A stretch of DNA of 64,000 nt from a virus. Positions 1 to 13,441 of this stretch are shown piece after piece. Position numbers and translations under genes: made by a program. The number at the start of each line of letters is the position of its first letter. Within the stretch, counting starts at the first letter, position 1. The stretch covers positions 99,544 through 163,543 of IMG/VR virus record IMGVR_UViG_3300017917_002938. The stretch is one strand, 5' to 3'. The notes beneath the pieces were generated by a model. That model had not been told where the DNA came from and ran no database searches. It saw only the letters and a list, made by a program, of their open reading frames with translations.

Positions 1-192
1 AACATTCTTATATTTGTCTGAGGCTTGTTTGAAAAAATTCATGTATTCCTGACCTCTTTTACTCTCAGGAAAATCCATATCCTTAGCAACGCAAATATCC
101 CCGGAAAGGATCAATACGTCAGCTTCGGGCTGATCATCAAAACCTAGAGGACCAAACTCTAGATGCACATCAGACATTAATGCTAATTTCAT
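1..192 (-). CDS. Calcineurin-like metallophosphoesterase (partial, runs off left edge)
   Basis: Manual translation from ATG at 192: MKLALMSDVHLEFGPLGFDDQPEADVLILSGDICVAKD..., with DxH and GDI metallophosphoesterase motifs; not in ORF track. Confidence 0.8.
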   Translation of the reverse strand, partial: MKLALMSDVHLEFGPLGFDDQPEADVLILSGDICVAKDMDFPESKRGQEYMNFFKQASDKYKNV

Positions 193-371
193 TTTATTTC
201 TTTCTTACGTCGTCTGTATTCGGCTCTAAGCCACCATTTATATTTTTTAAAATACTCCGCGGAGAGGTACTTAGGGTTTTCTCCCGTGATAGAGTAAATC
301 TCATCGCAATGCTCGTACCATATATTTCTTACCCAGTTGCGAAACAATTCATGTTTAGGTCCAGAGTGCAT
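189..371 (-). CDS. Hypothetical small phage protein
   Basis: ORF tiled between neighbours; stop overlaps next start (ATGA). Confidence 0.6.
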   Translation of the reverse strand: MHSGPKHELFRNWVRNIWYEHCDEIYSITGENPKYLSAEYFKKYKWWLRAEYRRRKKEIK

Positions 372-1194
372 GGCGTACCTTGATAAGTCTGATCAACATT
401 TGTTCATCCTCTTCATCATACTCTTGCTCTATTTCTTGACATCTCTTAAGTGAGCTTTCACCTAGAGCTTTTGTTTCAGGATCCTTAGAATCAACCCCTA
501 TCCATCTTATACCGTCGCCCTTCTCTTTGCGCATACGTTCACAATACTCCGACCATCCGCTAGCATCATGTGGATCAGGACGATTGGGATATACTTCCTT
601 CCACCATTTGTAAAGGGTAAGTATTTCCTCAGCATTTTTAGCTTGTGGTGTAAGTTCTCCTAGTGATGCAGAGTCTTCTCCTACCTCTTCTTCTTTCCAG
701 CGAAGTTTTCTTTGCCACTCAAGGTTGGCTAGTCCAGCTTCAGGGCAACGCCATACTCTCCAGCGGAACCATCCTGACCCCCAGAAAGGAGCATTATATA
801 GTTTCTTTTTTTCTGGACTCCAAACTATCTCCCACCATGCTAGTTCTACTTCTACAAATTCTACTAGCTCATTGAATAAGCAAGGAAGAAAACGATTTCC
901 TACATCGCGCCACTCACCAGGTTTAATATCCCGGGGATGAGCAGTAAGAGCGTGAGTGCGAGTGACCCAGCGATTATTTACATAGTATTTTACCGAGTAA
1001 ATTTTATCAACGGGCCACCAAATAAAGTTCTGAATAGCATCAAGAGCTTCCTCGGCAATCCAATATCTAACTGGATACGTTTTACTAGCCAGCCTCTGCC
1101 AACTATCCCATCCCTCGGAAGTTTCTGCTTTTGGTTTTGGAGTTCCACGAAGCCAGTCAGCAAACTTAGAACACGACCAATAATTACTGCGCAT
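355..1194 (-). CDS. Hypothetical Trp-rich protein (279 aa)
   Basis: Long ORF, GGAG RBS, first gene behind the promoter at 1218-1246. Confidence 0.75.
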   Translation of the reverse strand: MRSNYWSCSKFADWLRGTPKPKAETSEGWDSWQRLASKTYPVRYWIAEEALDAIQNFIWWPVDKIYSVKYYVNNRWVTRTHALTAHPRDIKPGEWRDVGNRFLPCLFNELVEFVEVELAWWEIVWSPEKKKLYNAPFWGSGWFRWRVWRCPEAGLANLEWQRKLRWKEEEVGEDSASLGELTPQAKNAEEILTLYKWWKEVYPNRPDPHDASGWSEYCERMRKEKGDGIRWIGVDSKDPETKALGESSLKRCQEIEQEYDEEDEQMLIRLIKVRHALWT

Positions 1195-1217
1195 AAATTT
1201 CTCCGTTTAATGATTAC

Positions 1218-1247
1218 ATTATATCTATAACGAGAAATTAAATCAAC
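1218..1247 (-). promoter_or_regulatory. Early sigma70-type promoter, repeat copy
   Basis: Minus strand GTTGATTTAATTTCTCGTTATAGATATAAT: TTGATT-17bp-TATAAT. Confidence 0.8.
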
Positions 1248-1249
1248 AT

Positions 1250-1276
1250 AAAAAAAACGCCCCGTACGGGGCGTTT
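1250..1276 (-). terminator. Rho-independent terminator after pqqA
   Basis: AAACGCCCC-GTAC-GGGGCGTTTTTTTT on minus strand. Confidence 0.85.
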
Positions 1277-1278
1277 GG

Positions 1279-1350
1279 TTAACGATTTGCGATATACATC
1301 GTAATCTCAAACCCAAATCTCATATCCACTGCTTCTGGCTTAGTCCACAT
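1279..1350 (-). CDS. pqqA: Coenzyme PQQ precursor peptide PqqA (23 aa)
   Basis: Manual translation [23 protein letters not shown]; WxxP...D(L/M)RxGFE(V/I)TxY pattern with the ExxxY pair; AAAGGAG RBS; own terminator; below the ORF-track size cutoff. Confidence 0.92.
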
Positions 1351-1440
1351 ACCGATCTCCTTTGTGAAAAACGTGTACAAAGGTACACGTAATATATTGC
1401 TTAGTTTAAGCGATAGTCACATACAGAAAATCATTAATTA

Positions 1441-1962
1441 CTAACTATTAAGGACTCGCGACACAGATGTAATGACTGCAGCAATACGACCAATATCACG
1501 GAGTTGTTCAACCGTGTAACCTTCCTTCTTGAGCGTGTCGTAGTGTGCCTTGACACAGAAATGACATTTACCTACAATCGAAGCAGACAGGCTATACGCT
1601 TCAAATTTTGCTTTAGTAGTACCACCGTGATTAGCAATCGCGTTCATTCGTAGTTGAGCGGGCAACCCTTTCAGGCTTTCATCCTCGGCCATTTCAACGT
1701 AAGGATACCAAACGTTATTTTGCGCCATGATACTAGCTGCAATCATTGCTGGGTCGTAATTTACTCCCTCAGCTCCTAGAATGGTACCAAGCCATCCTAC
1801 CAACTTACCGTTACCTGTAGCAAATGCTGCTGCCATAGCACAAAGAGCGGCTTCCTCTTTATCCAAAGTGCTGCGTTTCAATACCGCATCTAAGTTAAGT
1901 TTAGTATCCTTGGCATACTCAGGGATACTATCCTTGAGTTGGTCTACCCAATCTAAATTCAT
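1441..1962 (-). CDS. ahpD: Alkyl hydroperoxide reductase AhpD (CMD family)
   Basis: IPEYAKDTKLNL N-terminus, SIVGKCHFCVKAH CxxC/His motif, downstream of ahpC. Confidence 0.9.
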   Translation of the reverse strand: MNLDWVDQLKDSIPEYAKDTKLNLDAVLKRSTLDKEEAALCAMAAAFATGNGKLVGWLGTILGAEGVNYDPAMIAASIMAQNNVWYPYVEMAEDESLKGLPAQLRMNAIANHGGTTKAKFEAYSLSASIVGKCHFCVKAHYDTLKKEGYTVEQLRDIGRIAAVITSVSRVLNS

Positions 1963-2372
1963 TTTGTTTGTTCTCCTAAAATCTTGTAACCTTTACCTGT
2001 AGGATGTATTCCATCACCACTCATATGACCTTTAGGGCGAGCAATAATTGTGTCTCCGTACTCTTGAGCAATGCGAGTAATTGCATCATGTGGAATAGGT
2101 TTACGGTCTTGCCCGGGGTCAATCCAAAACACACGCTCACCTTTGATGGAGGAACGCATCTTCCTTAATTCACTTTCAGTCTTCACTCCCTTGTGGTCGT
2201 TTGCACCCAGACTGATGATCACGGTTCTTGCCGGTTGAGATGAGGCTTTGGGTAGGTAGTCTTTGTTCCACTGCCAACTGTTCCATCCACCTTTAGAGTA
2301 GCTTACACATTCAGGACGAGCCATCGACGTTCCTACTGCGATGCTGTCACCTATGATCATACAGTCAATCAT
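1959..2372 (-). CDS. SGNH/GDSL hydrolase family protein
   Basis: IIGDSIA (block I), SLGAND (block III), DGIHPT (block V). Confidence 0.8.
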   Translation of the reverse strand: MIDCMIIGDSIAVGTSMARPECVSYSKGGWNSWQWNKDYLPKASSQPARTVIISLGANDHKGVKTESELRKMRSSIKGERVFWIDPGQDRKPIPHDAITRIAQEYGDTIIARPKGHMSGDGIHPTGKGYKILGEQTK

Positions 2373-2914
2373 TAGAGAGTCTCCCCACCAACGACTCGGT
2401 TACATGCACAAAGTTCTCCAGTTTGCAATGCATCAAGTACGCGCAAAGTTTCTTCTGGAGAGCGACCTACGTTTAAATTGTTGACAGTTACATGTTGAAT
2501 AACGTTATCAGGATCTACAATAAATGTAGCGCGCAATGCTGCACCAGCAGGGGCATAGAATACGCCAAGCTGGTCAATCAATGATTTGTCCCATTCACGA
2601 GATGTGTCGGCAAACTGAATATGCTTGATCTTAGCCAAATCAGGGTGTGCTTTCTGCCATGCTAGTTTACAGAACTCATTATCTGTTGAACCTGTTAGCA
2701 GAACTGCATCACGGTCTGCAAAGTCCTGGAATAGTTTATCATATGCAACTATCTCGGTTGGACATACGAATGTGAAATCTTTTGGATAGTAAACGATTAC
2801 TTTCCATTTACCTTCAAACGATTCTTCTGTGATGTCAAAAAACGCATCTTCTGGTTGACCAGGTTTAACTCCCGTGATAGCGAACGGGTGTAGTTTATCT
2901 CCTACTGTAAGCAT
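2372..2914 (-). CDS. ahpC: Peroxiredoxin AhpC (2-Cys)
   Basis: YPKDFTFVCPTEI peroxidatic motif, RATFIVDPD, GELCACN resolving Cys. Confidence 0.95.
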   Translation of the reverse strand: MLTVGDKLHPFAITGVKPGQPEDAFFDITEESFEGKWKVIVYYPKDFTFVCPTEIVAYDKLFQDFADRDAVLLTGSTDNEFCKLAWQKAHPDLAKIKHIQFADTSREWDKSLIDQLGVFYAPAGAALRATFIVDPDNVIQHVTVNNLNVGRSPEETLRVLDALQTGELCACNRVVGGETL

Positions 2915-2968
2915 ATTTTCTCCTAAGTGAAAGTAAAAAGAGTGCCTGAAGCACTCTTACATTGTATG

Positions 2969-3037
2969 ATTATCTATAATTGAAAACCAGAATACAATTG
3001 AATATTTCTATTGAATGTTTCTATAACGATGATCGAT
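2969..3037 (-). promoter_or_regulatory. ahpC promoter with upstream LysR/OxyR-like boxes
   Basis: TTGTAT-17bp-GATAAT preceded by overlapping ATCG-N7-TTAT, ATAG-N7-CAAT and ATAG-N7-CAAT dyads. Confidence 0.5.
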
Positions 3038-3041
3038 TTTA

Positions 3042-3524
3042 TTAATCATCCTTAGGTGCTTCTACATACTTACGTTCGGGGGCGTATGGGAAGTTAACTT
3101 CTACTCTTGAATCGCGGCTGGTGAAATAACTCTTATATTTTTCACCTGTCTCCTCATCTGTATGCCAATCGTAGAACACTACTCCATCGATATCATAAGC
3201 GCCCGATTCATCTTTGAAGACATGGGAACAGCGTTTGTTCTGCCATAACTTACCCCCATCTCGTCCACCCCTATCACTTACATCTGTCCATTCCCAGTCT
3301 TCACCAGTCAATGGTACAATAGGTTTGAACATAGCCAATTGTTGAAACATATTAATGGCATATGGTGCAGTTGAACCAGAATGTCCTTCACCACTAAACA
3401 CTTCTAATAATTTTAGAACATGATTACAGATTGCTTCCTGCATATCATCATCGTATTTTCCATTCTCGTCTACCCAACCAGCGGCACGGAATTCTTCTTT
3501 AGCGTGATTCAATAAGTTACTCAT
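3042..3524 (-). CDS. Hypothetical phage protein
   Basis: 160-aa ORF with GGAG RBS; FSGEGHSGST...PLTGED.EW motif I recognise from phage hypotheticals. Confidence 0.7.
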   Translation of the reverse strand: MSNLLNHAKEEFRAAGWVDENGKYDDDMQEAICNHVLKLLEVFSGEGHSGSTAPYAINMFQQLAMFKPIVPLTGEDWEWTDVSDRGGRDGGKLWQNKRCSHVFKDESGAYDIDGVVFYDWHTDEETGEKYKSYFTSRDSRVEVNFPYAPERKYVEAPKDD

Positions 3525-3676
3525 TATGTTCTCTCCACATCTTGATTGCTTTTTTCAACTCATCCATCTGTTCAAGTCGAATATGATCCATGATACCCCA
3601 TTCATCTTTGTTCTTCGACATATCCCAAAGTTTATCATGGTGTTTCTGTAATACATCAATTACTACATCATAATCT

Positions 3677-3925
3677 TCACTCACTTGGCACTCCTACTTT
3701 TGGACCAACAAGTGAATTACCCCATTGGTCTGTTTCCACTGCCCAATGTACCACGATCCAATCATCTAGTGCAGCCTGGTCTGTCATTAAATGGGCTTTA
3801 TCGGCTTGACACATCATCATAACCCAATTGCGATACCATGCACTTCTCAGTATCTGTTCTTCAGACCAAGTCTCTACAACATGCTGATCTTCTTCACCAG
3901 GGAAAGATATAGTCCAGTATTTCAT
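3677..3925 (-). CDS. Hypothetical protein
   Basis: Tiled minus-strand ORF. Confidence 0.6.
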   Translation of the reverse strand: MKYWTISFPGEEDQHVVETWSEEQILRSAWYRNWVMMMCQADKAHLMTDQAALDDWIVVHWAVETDQWGNSLVGPKVGVPSE

Positions 3926-4092
3926 TTATCTTTTTCGGTAAGAAATGTACTGTGCGTATTTTGAACGAGTGGGCTTGTGTTTGAAGCTGACTCCACCTTT
4001 GGAGGACAATAGAAACACATATGTGTTGTAGGTGCATATACGCGATTACAAAGTGGGCATTGCCAGCCTTGTTGTGGGGTATTAAACATCAT
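3922..4092 (-). CDS. Small Zn-ribbon protein
   Basis: WQCPLCNRVYAPTTHMCFYC; start trimmed to MMFNTP. Confidence 0.6.
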   Translation of the reverse strand: MMFNTPQQGWQCPLCNRVYAPTTHMCFYCPPKVESASNTSPLVQNTHSTFLTEKDK

Positions 4093-4294
4093 CTTCTTCT
4101 CCGTACCCAATTTCATCCAAAGCTTTGTCAAACTCATGATCTAGCCCTCTACATTCACAAACAGTATCACAATCATGACTTTCGAAATGATCGATATACA
4201 ACTTATATAACTCTTTTCGATACTTTTTAGGAACGGCTTTCTGGGTAGAAAGAATAACATCCCTTAACAGATCAGAACCTGATGCCCATCCCAT
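4082..4294 (-). CDS. Hypothetical protein
   Basis: Starts MGWASGS, acidic tail; tiled ORF. Confidence 0.6.
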   Translation of the reverse strand: MGWASGSDLLRDVILSTQKAVPKKYRKELYKLYIDHFESHDCDTVCECRGLDHEFDKALDEIGYGEEDDV

Positions 4295-4295
4295 T

Positions 4296-4622
4296 TTATA
4301 CTCCAAACATTCTTTTCAGTTGTTCGATATGCAAAGATCTCAAATTGGATTCAATCTCAACATTAGCGGCTTCTCTAACACATTCTTCAATGTCAATCTG
4401 ACCACCAACGATTGCCGCTGTCACCAGCAGCCTCATCTCATCAAGATGTAAATCAAACTTTTTGGTTTCTTTATTGTGTTCAATGGTATAATCCATTCCT
4501 TCACCGTTCCACCATTCAGAAAAATGAACAGAGACGGGGCCGTGTAGGCTGCTATCCTCAATTATACCGACTGTCCCGGTCTTCCTGACGTTTGCAAATT
4601 TCTTTTGCTGATTCAAATCCAT
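4296..4622 (-). CDS. Hypothetical protein
   Basis: AAGGAG RBS before MDLNQQ; start uncertain. Confidence 0.55.
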   Translation of the reverse strand: MDLNQQKKFANVRKTGTVGIIEDSSLHGPVSVHFSEWWNGEGMDYTIEHNKETKKFDLHLDEMRLLVTAAIVGGQIDIEECVREAANVEIESNLRSLHIEQLKRMFGV

Positions 4623-4908
4623 AATCAAATGTCTCCTTAATAAGTTGTTCAAATTCTTGAGGGGAAAAGCAGTAGGTTGAAATAGAATATTCTTTACCCA
4701 TAAGCTCGGGGCGGTCTCTTTGAGATAGGAGTACCAACTTTGGTTTATCAATAATAGCCTGTGCTATAGCTTGTCTTAAACCATCGGTGATCATATGATG
4801 TACATCTACATCATTTTTAATATCTAGTATGCTACTGACTATTGTCTTGCATTCTAGCCTACAATCTACTTTTTTACCTTTGAGGTACTTTACCAACATA
4901 TCATTCAC
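4558..4908 (-). CDS. Hypothetical protein
   Basis: Tiled minus-strand ORF. Confidence 0.55.
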   Translation of the reverse strand: MNDMLVKYLKGKKVDCRLECKTIVSSILDIKNDVDVHHMITDGLRQAIAQAIIDKPKLVLLSQRDRPELMGKEYSISTYCFSPQEFEQLIKETFDYGFESAKEICKRQEDRDSRYN

Positions 4909-5015
4909 TGTTCTTCCCCTTATAATTACCTAGTAGTAAGACAGTGAGTAAGAACCACCAAGGAGACCAGTCCCACATCTGTACCATATACGCAGTACCG
5001 GCTAGTAGGGAGAGA

Positions 5016-5207
5016 TTATAGACGGCGACGATAATTATTGCTATTAATTTTATCATATTCATCTTGACTGTCCCTATCAATTTTTCTCAAACCGGAAAAC
5101 AAAAAAATGAAGCCGGTTACCAATACTGTCAACCATTGATACGGTGCTAACATTTCATCGTAGGTTCCGTAGAAGATAATGATCAACCCTATCCATAGTC
5201 TGATCAT
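5016..5207 (-). CDS. Small membrane protein
   Basis: Two hydrophobic segments. Confidence 0.55.
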   Translation of the reverse strand: MIRLWIGLIIIFYGTYDEMLAPYQWLTVLVTGFIFLFSGLRKIDRDSQDEYDKINSNNYRRRL

Positions 5208-5419
5208 TTGATGGCTCTCACCCTATCAATTACTTCATTGGCAAGAGTATAATCACCACTCAACTCTACCGCTTGATCGATCAAATCAAGTCTGTAACAT
5301 CTAAGCAATTCCATAGCATATTCCCTATCATCAGAAGAAATCGTATCCCACCATTCGTCAAGATCCTTTTTCTTAAGGTTCAATATGAAGTTGAGGTTGT
5401 TCAGATCATACTCATCCAT
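5204..5419 (-). CDS. Hypothetical acidic protein
   Basis: GGAG RBS, tiled ORF. Confidence 0.6.
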   Translation of the reverse strand: MDEYDLNNLNFILNLKKKDLDEWWDTISSDDREYAMELLRCYRLDLIDQAVELSGDYTLANEVIDRVRAIK

Positions 5420-5420
5420 A

Positions 5421-5615
5421 TTAACTCCCTCCGCCGGCGTATGCGTGATGAAGTACGTAATTGATCACTTCTTTTTGTCCTCTTTCTCCACTGATCCACA
5501 GATCAATAGGGCGTTGGAACTTGAAGGAAGCGTTAGGACTATCCCACCATTTAGAAACAAAATCTTCTGATCCTAGCATGGCCAGAAGGTGTTTATCCAC
5601 GATATGTTTGTACAT
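5421..5615 (-). CDS. Xre/MbcA/ParS antitoxin C-terminal-like domain protein
   Basis: WWDSPNASFKFQRPIDLW...G.KEVINYV matches the W..PN.....P.DL....G...V..Y pattern of DUF2384-type domains. Confidence 0.55.
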   Translation of the reverse strand: MYKHIVDKHLLAMLGSEDFVSKWWDSPNASFKFQRPIDLWISGERGQKEVINYVLHHAYAGGGS

Positions 5616-5802
5616 CCCAATACTCCTCTAATAACTGTGCACCATATACACAGTTATTTTCTTTTAAATATTCTATAGATTCTTCTATGGACTTATGTAC
5701 AGCTTCAGGGACCTGATCACGGGTGCGCATCCATTTACCATCGATAGATTTTTCGGCCTGTTCAACCAGATCGGCAATTTGCCTCTTACGCCACCCACTC
5801 AT
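5593..5802 (-). CDS. Hypothetical protein
   Basis: Tiled ORF. Confidence 0.55.
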   Translation of the reverse strand: MSGWRKRQIADLVEQAEKSIDGKWMRTRDQVPEAVHKSIEESIEYLKENNCVYGAQLLEEYWDVQTYRG

Positions 5803-6071
5803 AACGCTCTCCCTGTCTTAATGTAGAGGTATTCATCCAGTTCTTGATCGAAAGGTTTACCTTGACGGCGTAGGTGGAAGATCTTATCAATCAGGCTCTC
5901 CGAATCACCGTATGTCGGATGAAACAGATCCCGCTTTTGACACTCTTCAATCAATTCTTGATCGGAGGTGTTTTCTAGAAAATCATAACCACGACATTGA
6001 AGCTCATCGATCAAATCATCTTCATCGAAGTCTTCCAGATCTACATCTACATCTACACTTTTACGAACCAT
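5799..6071 (-). CDS. Hypothetical acidic protein
   Basis: Repeated D..D..LI.E...R motif; GGAG RBS. Confidence 0.65.
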   Translation of the reverse strand: MVRKSVDVDVDLEDFDEDDLIDELQCRGYDFLENTSDQELIEECQKRDLFHPTYGDSESLIDKIFHLRRQGKPFDQELDEYLYIKTGRAL

Positions 6072-12943: not shown

Positions 12944-13441
12944 ATGTACTTTTTCTATCTCACCAAAGACTCTATCATCATTACTGAGGAGAGGTTAAAG
13001 CATGAGCAAATACAATCGACCAAAGACTATGACAATATTGACAAGATCGTAGATCAATTGAAGAGGACTTATAAAGATTGTTCTATTGATAGACGTGTCA
13101 AGGTCAAGAGACAATTTGGATGGAAGTATTGGTCTGATGAAACCAAAGAAAAGAGTAGGAAAGCCATTTCCCGTTCTCTGACTGGATTGTTAAAGAGCGA
13201 GGAGCACAAGAGAGCGATCTCTCTGGCCCGTAAGGGTAAAGGTAACTTTACCGGTAAGAAACATACTGACTATACTAAAGCACTTCTATCTCATGCCAGA
13301 CGAGGTAAGGATCCTATTAAAGGTAAACGTTGGTGTCATAATCCTTTAACCGGGGAAGAGAGACGTCTCTATGAGTTAATTGAAGGATTTACTTGGGGTC
13401 GTTCACCAGAAATCAAAGATTACTTCGGTCGTTGGCGTTAA
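12944..13441 (+). CDS. NUMOD3-repeat DNA-binding protein (homing-endonuclease-like)
   Basis: SDETKEKSRKAIS, KSEEHKRAISLARKG, GKKHTDYTKALLS repeats; C-terminal KRWCHN...GFTWGR. Confidence 0.7.
   Translation: MYFFYLTKDSIIITEERLKHEQIQSTKDYDNIDKIVDQLKRTYKDCSIDRRVKVKRQFGWKYWSDETKEKSRKAISRSLTGLLKSEEHKRAISLARKGKGNFTGKKHTDYTKALLSHARRGKDPIKGKRWCHNPLTGEERRLYELIEGFTWGRSPEIKDYFGRWR

Follow-up and report, generated by a model that had tools for sequence, protein, structure and literature searches.

The locus described here raises the question whether a lytic phage carries a genuine gene for PqqA, the PQQ precursor peptide, and what use a phage could have for such a gene on its own. The analysed stretch of 64,000 nucleotides, hereafter called the window, covers bases 99,544-163,543 of a 163.5-kb IMG/VR virus record with a CheckV completeness estimate of 93%. 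Positions given below are those of the window unless stated otherwise.

A pqqA gene in a T4-like phage genome

The open reading frame at 1279-1350 on the minus strand consists of 23 codons followed by a TAA stop codon. The encoded peptide scored 41.9 bits against the Pfam family PqqA (PF08042, cut-off 21.1) and 41.2 bits against the NCBIfam equivalog TIGR02107 (cut-off 20). These scores are about twice the curated cut-offs and bear out the identity assigned in the preliminary description. Both the size and the Glu-X-X-X-Tyr pair are of the PqqA type, with 23 residues and with Glu15 and Tyr19 (EITMY) as the cross-link residues. When the complete 163.5-kb genome was searched in all six frames, 1279-1350 was the sole PqqA match (E 1.5e-10). 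The reading frame is far beyond chance and is a true pqqA gene. No PqqA chain was found in the PDB, where the search gave only noise.

Re-reading of the sequence confirmed the 72-nt minus-strand frame, the spacing of its ribosome binding site (RBS) and the terminator as first described. A Shine-Dalgarno sequence AAAGGAG (1357-1363, minus strand) is located 6 nt 5′ of the ATG, and the gene is followed by an intrinsic terminator hairpin (1255-1276, minus strand; 9 bp with 6 GC and a loop of 4) and a T-run at ca. 1247-1254. An alternative in-frame TTG start would give a 33-residue form (1279-1380); the ATG start is preferred because it has the RBS and gives the family-standard 23 residues.

The carrier of this gene is a genuine lytic T4-like phage. 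Among the genes of the window are those for a family-B DNA polymerase (polB), a helicase, a tail sheath protein and the large terminase (TerL), and the polB and TerL proteins are ca. 48-55% identical to those of cyanophages (Kyanoviridae-type T4-like), Caulobacter phage Cr30 and phage Melnitz alike. The phage was searched for psbA, which is absent, and megablast of window positions 1-6000 against GenBank phages gave no match. The possibility that the locus is a chimeric host fragment, or that the viral record contains host contamination, is so unlikely as to be almost negligible, because pqqA lies ca. 101 kb into the T4-like genome and is bordered by phage genes on both sides. In addition, its GC content is close to that of the rest of the phage, and pqqC, pqqD and pqqE are missing. 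Errors of this kind do occur, as illustrated by the GenBank entry 'Acinetobacter phage MD-2021a' (L243, CAKLQF020000010.1, 105710-110775), which contains ppk and a full pqqABCDE set and looks like a bacterial chromosome filed as phage. The two PqqA matches in that entry were rejected as a case of pqqA in a phage of a non-methylotroph; its pqqBCDE operon of the classical type is annotated and its pqqA is not.

The whole phage record contains no pqqC, pqqD, pqqE, radical-SAM domain or PQQ_2 dehydrogenase. The earlier remark that no pqqB-E genes are visible in the window holds for pqqC, pqqD and pqqE, and for these three it extends to the whole record. The phage pqqA is accordingly not adjacent to pqqBCDE genes. 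Such adjacency is typical for PqqA and not defining, since 89 of the 120 bacterial loci listed for the same subtype (see below) also have no pqqB, pqqC or pqqD nearby.

Several other features of this phage were recorded. An anti-defence gene for Tad3, an inhibitor of type I Thoeris, is located 1.7 kb upstream of pqqA (3042-3524, minus strand; Pfam 123.8 bits, cut-off 27), and a reading frame with a NUMOD3 motif of the homing-endonuclease type (12944-13441) is on the plus strand, unlike almost every other gene in this region. The phage genome also harbors 29 tRNA genes (59604-68299 of C1, outside the window). A Trp-rich protein of 279 amino acids is encoded at 355-1194 (minus strand) behind its own promoter-like site (TTGATT-17-TATAAT, 1218-1246). 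It was considered as a partner of pqqA and rejected: it has no match in Pfam, PHROGs or NCBIfam and no homologue in 119 viral pqqA loci.

Stand-alone pqqA genes in viruses and methylotrophs

The preliminary description was aware of no characterised phage pqqA. This claim of novelty fails because a viral PqqA was published in 2020 and the gene is common both in viral contigs and in cultured methylotroph phages. A PqqA was reported for the representative of VP_266, a viral population of Lake Baikal, and was proposed to boost PQQ for methanol dehydrogenase, i.e. to act as an auxiliary metabolic gene (AMG) in the same sense as suggested for the present phage (Coutinho et al. 2020, Microbiome 8:163, PMC7678222). 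As in the present case, the VP_266 phage is uncultured, its pqqA stands alone, and the gene is interpreted as an AMG for PQQ-dependent methanol oxidation. The Baikal populations were reported with a methanol dehydrogenase gene as well (PMC7678222), whereas the present phage has no PQQ_2 dehydrogenase; furthermore, the present phage has an AhpC/AhpD operon next to pqqA, and its host may be outside the classic Methylophilaceae. The concept is already known, and this phage is a further instance that adds breadth and no new principle.

To IMG/VR we applied a degenerate DNA pattern for M-W-x-K-P...F-G-x-E-x-T-x-Y, which matched at least 119 contigs. All viral copies have exactly 23 codons. The 108 unique viral DNA sequences encode 47 peptides, with a pooled pN/pS of 0.17, and residues W2, K4, P5, R11, F12, G13, F14, E15, T17 and Y19 are invariant while using 2-5 codons each. 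Viral pqqA is under purifying selection. All 23 positions of the peptide described here behave as in these 108 copies, and Glu15 and Tyr19 are also invariant in 130 bacterial copies. The invariant viral residues W2, K4 and P5 are candidates for the conserved leader residues by which PqqD would recognise the peptide. Genes for pqqB, pqqC or pqqD were found in the fetched flanks of none of the 119 viral loci listed, versus 31 of the 120 bacterial loci listed, which served as positive control. Hence, pqqA is a selected, stand-alone viral gene.

These data bear on the idea that pqqA is a neutral passenger, a piece of host DNA that was picked up and is carried along although the phage gains nothing from it. 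In favour of this idea, the gene is surrounded by small reading frames in an accessory region that is variable and slightly raised in GC, and host genes do accumulate in accessory regions of phages. A passenger is nevertheless improbable in view of the low pN/pS, the exact length of 23 codons throughout the 108 different sequences from viruses, the occurrence of pqqA in unrelated phage types, and the retention of the RBS, the upstream box (see below) and the terminator.

The peptide was also compared with phage sequences by tblastn, which revealed stand-alone 23-residue PqqA sequences with 65-78% identity in unrelated phages of OM43 and LD28 methylotrophs. The matches comprise the Methylophilales phages MEP401/402, Venkman, Melnitz (four isolates) and MEP301, the LD28 phage P19250A, and one uncultured Caudoviricetes record. 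These cultured phages, which include podo- and myovirus types, share the stand-alone state and the length of the peptide with the phage studied here. Most of the matches are unannotated. The preliminary description expected standard pipelines to miss the gene, and ORF callers do skip it in nearly all viral records, cultured phages included. Phage Melnitz resembles the present phage in being T4-like of the Kyanoviridae type and in having a permuted tmRNA, whereas its polymerase is only 48% identical, so the present phage represents a separate lineage. The pqqA of Melnitz (L241:2461-2566; MZ577097.1, 76100-76205) is unannotated, with an antisense 'hypothetical protein' (MelnitzEXVC044M_152) annotated over it and a tRNA-Leu 14 nt downstream. 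The Melnitz paper does not mention pqqA (PMC9004378).

The same DNA pattern was run on GTDB species genomes and gave at least 120 loci. Among the matches listed, the bacterial carriers of this PqqA subtype are almost all Methylophilaceae, other Burkholderiales and betaproteobacterial MAGs, and Methylophaga; the subtype is found almost only in methylotrophs among these matches. The best identity to the phage peptide among the matches listed is 19 of 23 residues, and the exact C-terminal variant of the phage is present in no GTDB species representative. Five sampled genomes contain 2-9 pqqA copies each, which agrees with the earlier statement that many hosts carry extra copies. The candidate host lineages have several stand-alone ones. 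Of the Methylophilaceae genomes sampled, 40 of 41 encode PqqE and 41 of 41 encode PqqC.

Classical PqqA is operon-linked, with pqqABCDE(F) clusters in Klebsiella, Methylorubrum and Acinetobacter. The phage peptide belongs to the same family and has the same Glu-X3-Tyr motif, whereas it differs from the classical type in its leader subtype and has no adjacent pqqBCDE. It is closer to the stand-alone copies of Methylophilaceae, Methylophaga and related Burkholderiales, with which it shares the 23-residue subtype MWxKP...RFGFExTMY (up to 19 of 23 residues identical) and a common layout of box, RBS and terminator, and most of these bacterial copies also lie away from pqqB, pqqC and pqqD. A methylotroph production strain possesses five pqqA copies of which three are stand-alone, and one of the latter is among the most highly transcribed and tracks PQQ synthesis (PMC9851590). 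By analogy, this strain is the closest functional precedent for the phage gene.

Upstream box and peroxiredoxin neighbourhood

The region 5′ of the phage gene contains a palindrome-like box, TAATGATTTTCTGTA (1422-1436, minus strand), which starts 86 nt before the pqqA ATG and lies 1 nt upstream of a predicted −35 element. The putative promoter is sigma-70-like (1391-1420, minus strand; GTGACT, an 18-nt spacer and TATATT, with 9 of 12 consensus matches). Between its −10 element and the RBS, an 8-bp hairpin is formed by ACGTGTAC, a CTTT loop and GTACACGT (1371-1390, minus strand; −9.8 kcal/mol), with a T-run after it. The promoter call is tentative because the predicted start site falls inside this hairpin. 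A literature search found no paper describing a pqqA promoter in Methylophilaceae.

A shared box was recovered by counting 8-mers in the upstream regions of pqqA genes and is designated TAATGATTTTC-type. When scored as at least 11 of 15 matches to TCATGATTTTCATGA in either orientation, it is present in 79 of 116 viral (68%) and 100 of 127 bacterial upstream regions (79%), versus 64 of 696 random windows (9%). The box is taxon-specific, reading TCAGGAAAATCCTGA in Methylophaga and T(C/A)ATGAAAATCAT(G/T)A in Betaproteobacteria. The phage box agrees with that of betaproteobacterial pqqA genes in 11 of its 15 positions; its second half-site is degenerate, and its first half-site is of the betaproteobacterial type. 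Its position at −86 falls within the most populated viral bins (−90 to −85). Its 11-nt core has one exact copy in the window, and a phage regulon of further boxes was rejected, with matches at one mismatch being at chance level (8 found versus 6.6 expected).

The spacing of the box differs between viruses and bacteria. In bacteria, the distance from the start of the box to a −10-like hexamer forms a single sharp class of 59-61 nt (37 of 106 loci), whereas viral loci fall into two classes, 59-61 and 37-41 nt. With 40 nt, the present phage belongs to the shorter class, its box being ca. 20 nt closer to the −10 element than the bacterial norm. The A/T-tract of the box on the coding strand is mostly TTTT in viruses (59 of 79; L002-L120) versus mostly AAAA in bacteria (78 of 100; L121-L240).

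The other flanking signals are conserved as well. AAGGAG-type k-mers occur at −12 to −15 in the viral and bacterial sets alike, and a strong 3′ structure was found in 72% of viral and 95% of bacterial copies versus 33% of random windows (p 3e-15); the 3′ terminator is a conserved feature of pqqA genes. A conserved hairpin in the 5′-UTR, suggested by hairpins noticed on inspection of the nearest loci, was considered and rejected, with no enrichment across viral loci over random windows (p 0.84) in a crude test in which the controls mix viral DNA with bacterial DNA of higher GC. The hairpin at 1371-1390 probably terminates transcription of the upstream operon discussed below.

A phage peptide of this kind might also act against the host pathway. 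It could serve as a decoy that ties up PqqD and PqqE, or the box could titrate a host regulator, with the result that PQQ synthesis in the host is lowered or re-timed. Retention of a host-type box, and the orientation and spacing by which viral boxes often deviate from the bacterial arrangement, fit such interference. In a decoy, loss of the cross-link residues would be expected, whereas the phage peptide keeps every invariant residue, Glu15 and Tyr19 included, and is indistinguishable from host copies. We regard interference as highly improbable, and prefer the reading in which pqqA supplies precursor to the host enzymes.

Directly upstream of pqqA, three overlapping genes form an ahpC-GDSL-ahpD unit. 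The first gene encodes an AhpC-type peroxiredoxin (2372-2914, minus strand) with the peroxidatic motif FTFVCPTE, scoring 73.9 bits for Pfam AhpC-TSA and, below the cut-off, 114.5 bits for TIGR03137. It is followed by a short GDSL-like protein (1959-2372, minus strand) and an AhpD-like alkylhydroperoxidase of the CMD family (1441-1962, minus strand), which has a CHFC CxxC motif and scores 43.2 bits for Pfam CMD and, below the cut-off, 114.5 bits for TIGR00777. Terminator-like hairpins flank the operon (1441-2914) on both sides, at 2938-2958 and 1371-1390. In two further viral contigs, a homologue of the short GDSL-like protein with 47-50% identity is encoded within ca. 1 kb of pqqA (L074:6883-7299 and L114:1285-1701).

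Peroxiredoxin genes recur beside pqqA elsewhere. In two other viral fragments, pqqA is directly followed by an AhpC/TSA gene (L011:3885-4601 and L071:228-945). Both fragments are genuine T4-like pieces with genes for clamp loader, RegA, Hsp20 and DNA ligase, and the order pqqA-peroxiredoxin is also found in three Methylophaga genomes (L144:2960-3740, L164:2572-3352 and G002:C21:11165-11947). This looks like a recurring association rather than shared descent because the peroxiredoxins are only ca. 30% identical to one another. The recurrence suggests a link between the supply of PQQ precursor and the removal of peroxide; it is rare, and we consider it a lead.

Such a link could mean that the phage gene serves redox protection instead of the supply of dehydrogenases. 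PqqC releases H2O2, and pqqA would then function together with the adjacent AhpC and AhpD, either with PQQ itself as antioxidant or with the peroxiredoxins clearing H2O2 from PqqC and from redox cycling of PQQ. The ahpC-GDSL-ahpD operon next to pqqA and the peroxiredoxin genes that directly follow pqqA in L011, L071 and the Methylophaga genomes speak for this explanation. Against it, the association is confined to 2 of the 119 other viral loci listed and one bacterial genus, most viral copies having no peroxiredoxin neighbour, the low identity among the AhpC proteins may reflect three independent events, and in the present phage a terminator-like hairpin lies between the operon and pqqA. We therefore consider redox protection as the main role of pqqA unlikely, and return to the supply of PQQ for dehydrogenases as the preferred function.

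Probable host and proposed role of the phage peptide

The host is probably a betaproteobacterium that makes PQQ, as judged from sequence features of the phage. Four weak markers agree on a betaproteobacterial host: the type of the box, the ...MYIANR ending of the peptide, the tmRNA tag, and the best match of AhpC and AhpD. Among the matches listed, PqqA sequences ending in ...MYIANR occur in Burkholderiales and betaproteobacterial MAGs and not in typical Methylophilaceae. The phage encodes a permuted two-piece tmRNA (C1:56754-57123, minus strand, outside the window) with the tag ANDERFALAA, compared to ANDETYALAA in Methylophilaceae and ANDNNYALAA in Methylophaga. The tag of MAGs that have the ...MYIANR ending, ANDERYALAA, is one residue away from that of the phage, and the betaproteobacterial MAG G070 has the exact phage tag. 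The tag is weak host evidence and only suggestive because the tmRNA of Melnitz does not match that of its own host lineage (PMC9004378). The best bacterial match of AhpC and AhpD is an adjacent pair in the same MAG G070, with 52% and 40% identity.

Two MAGs with small genomes, TMED22 and Co_bin_170, share the first 11 bases and the orientation of the phage box, and their GC content of ca. 44% is the nearest among the candidates to the 39% of the phage. All five betaproteobacterial candidates encode PqqE (four above the cut-off) and 1-11 PQQ-dependent alcohol or methanol dehydrogenases. No cultured relative of the phage was found that is close enough for host assignment, the polB and TerL proteins being ca. 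48-55% identical at best.

With these data, we propose as the likely role of the gene that it feeds a consumable precursor to the Pqq enzymes of the host and so sustains PQQ-dependent dehydrogenases. This is the helper-gene reading of the preliminary description; it loses its novelty and otherwise fits the data, with a true PqqA that stands alone in a real phage, evolves under purifying selection, and has candidate hosts that possess pqqC, pqqE and PQQ dehydrogenases. The phage pqqA would form a short transcription unit of its own, composed of a host-type operator box, a sigma-70-like promoter, a strong RBS, 23 codons and an intrinsic terminator. After infection, it would be transcribed by the host RNA polymerase, probably under control of the same host regulator that acts on the cell's own pqqA copies. 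Following translation, the peptide would be bound by host PqqD and cross-linked between Glu15 and Tyr19 by host PqqE, and PqqB, PqqC and a protease would complete its processing to PQQ. With one peptide consumed per PQQ molecule, the phage copy would top up a stoichiometric input. The benefit to the phage would be that the periplasmic PQQ-dependent methanol and alcohol dehydrogenases, and hence the energy supply, are kept running while host transcription declines.

A more specific scheme can be formulated, which we put forward tentatively and with considerable doubt. It assumes that phage pqqA copies keep the host operator, in many phages shifted by about two helical turns, so that the PQQ regulator of the host would switch on the viral gene. 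In some T4-like lineages, the present one included, pqqA and a peroxiredoxin might act as one unit for the formation of PQQ and the disposal of the peroxide that arises from it, and the host would be a betaproteobacterium that uses PQQ and does not belong to the classic Methylophilaceae. If true, such a host would widen the host range of the pqqA helper gene. Two features, the host operator that is kept and the peroxiredoxin neighbour that recurs, offer testable leads to the control of such a tiny helper gene.

For annotation, the finding means that pqqA escapes ORF calling in almost every viral record, Melnitz even having a reading frame on the wrong strand in its place. Methylotrophs that are abundant in aquatic habitats require PQQ for their methanol and alcohol dehydrogenases, and a phage that tops up the sole consumable input of PQQ synthesis would tie infection to one-carbon turnover.
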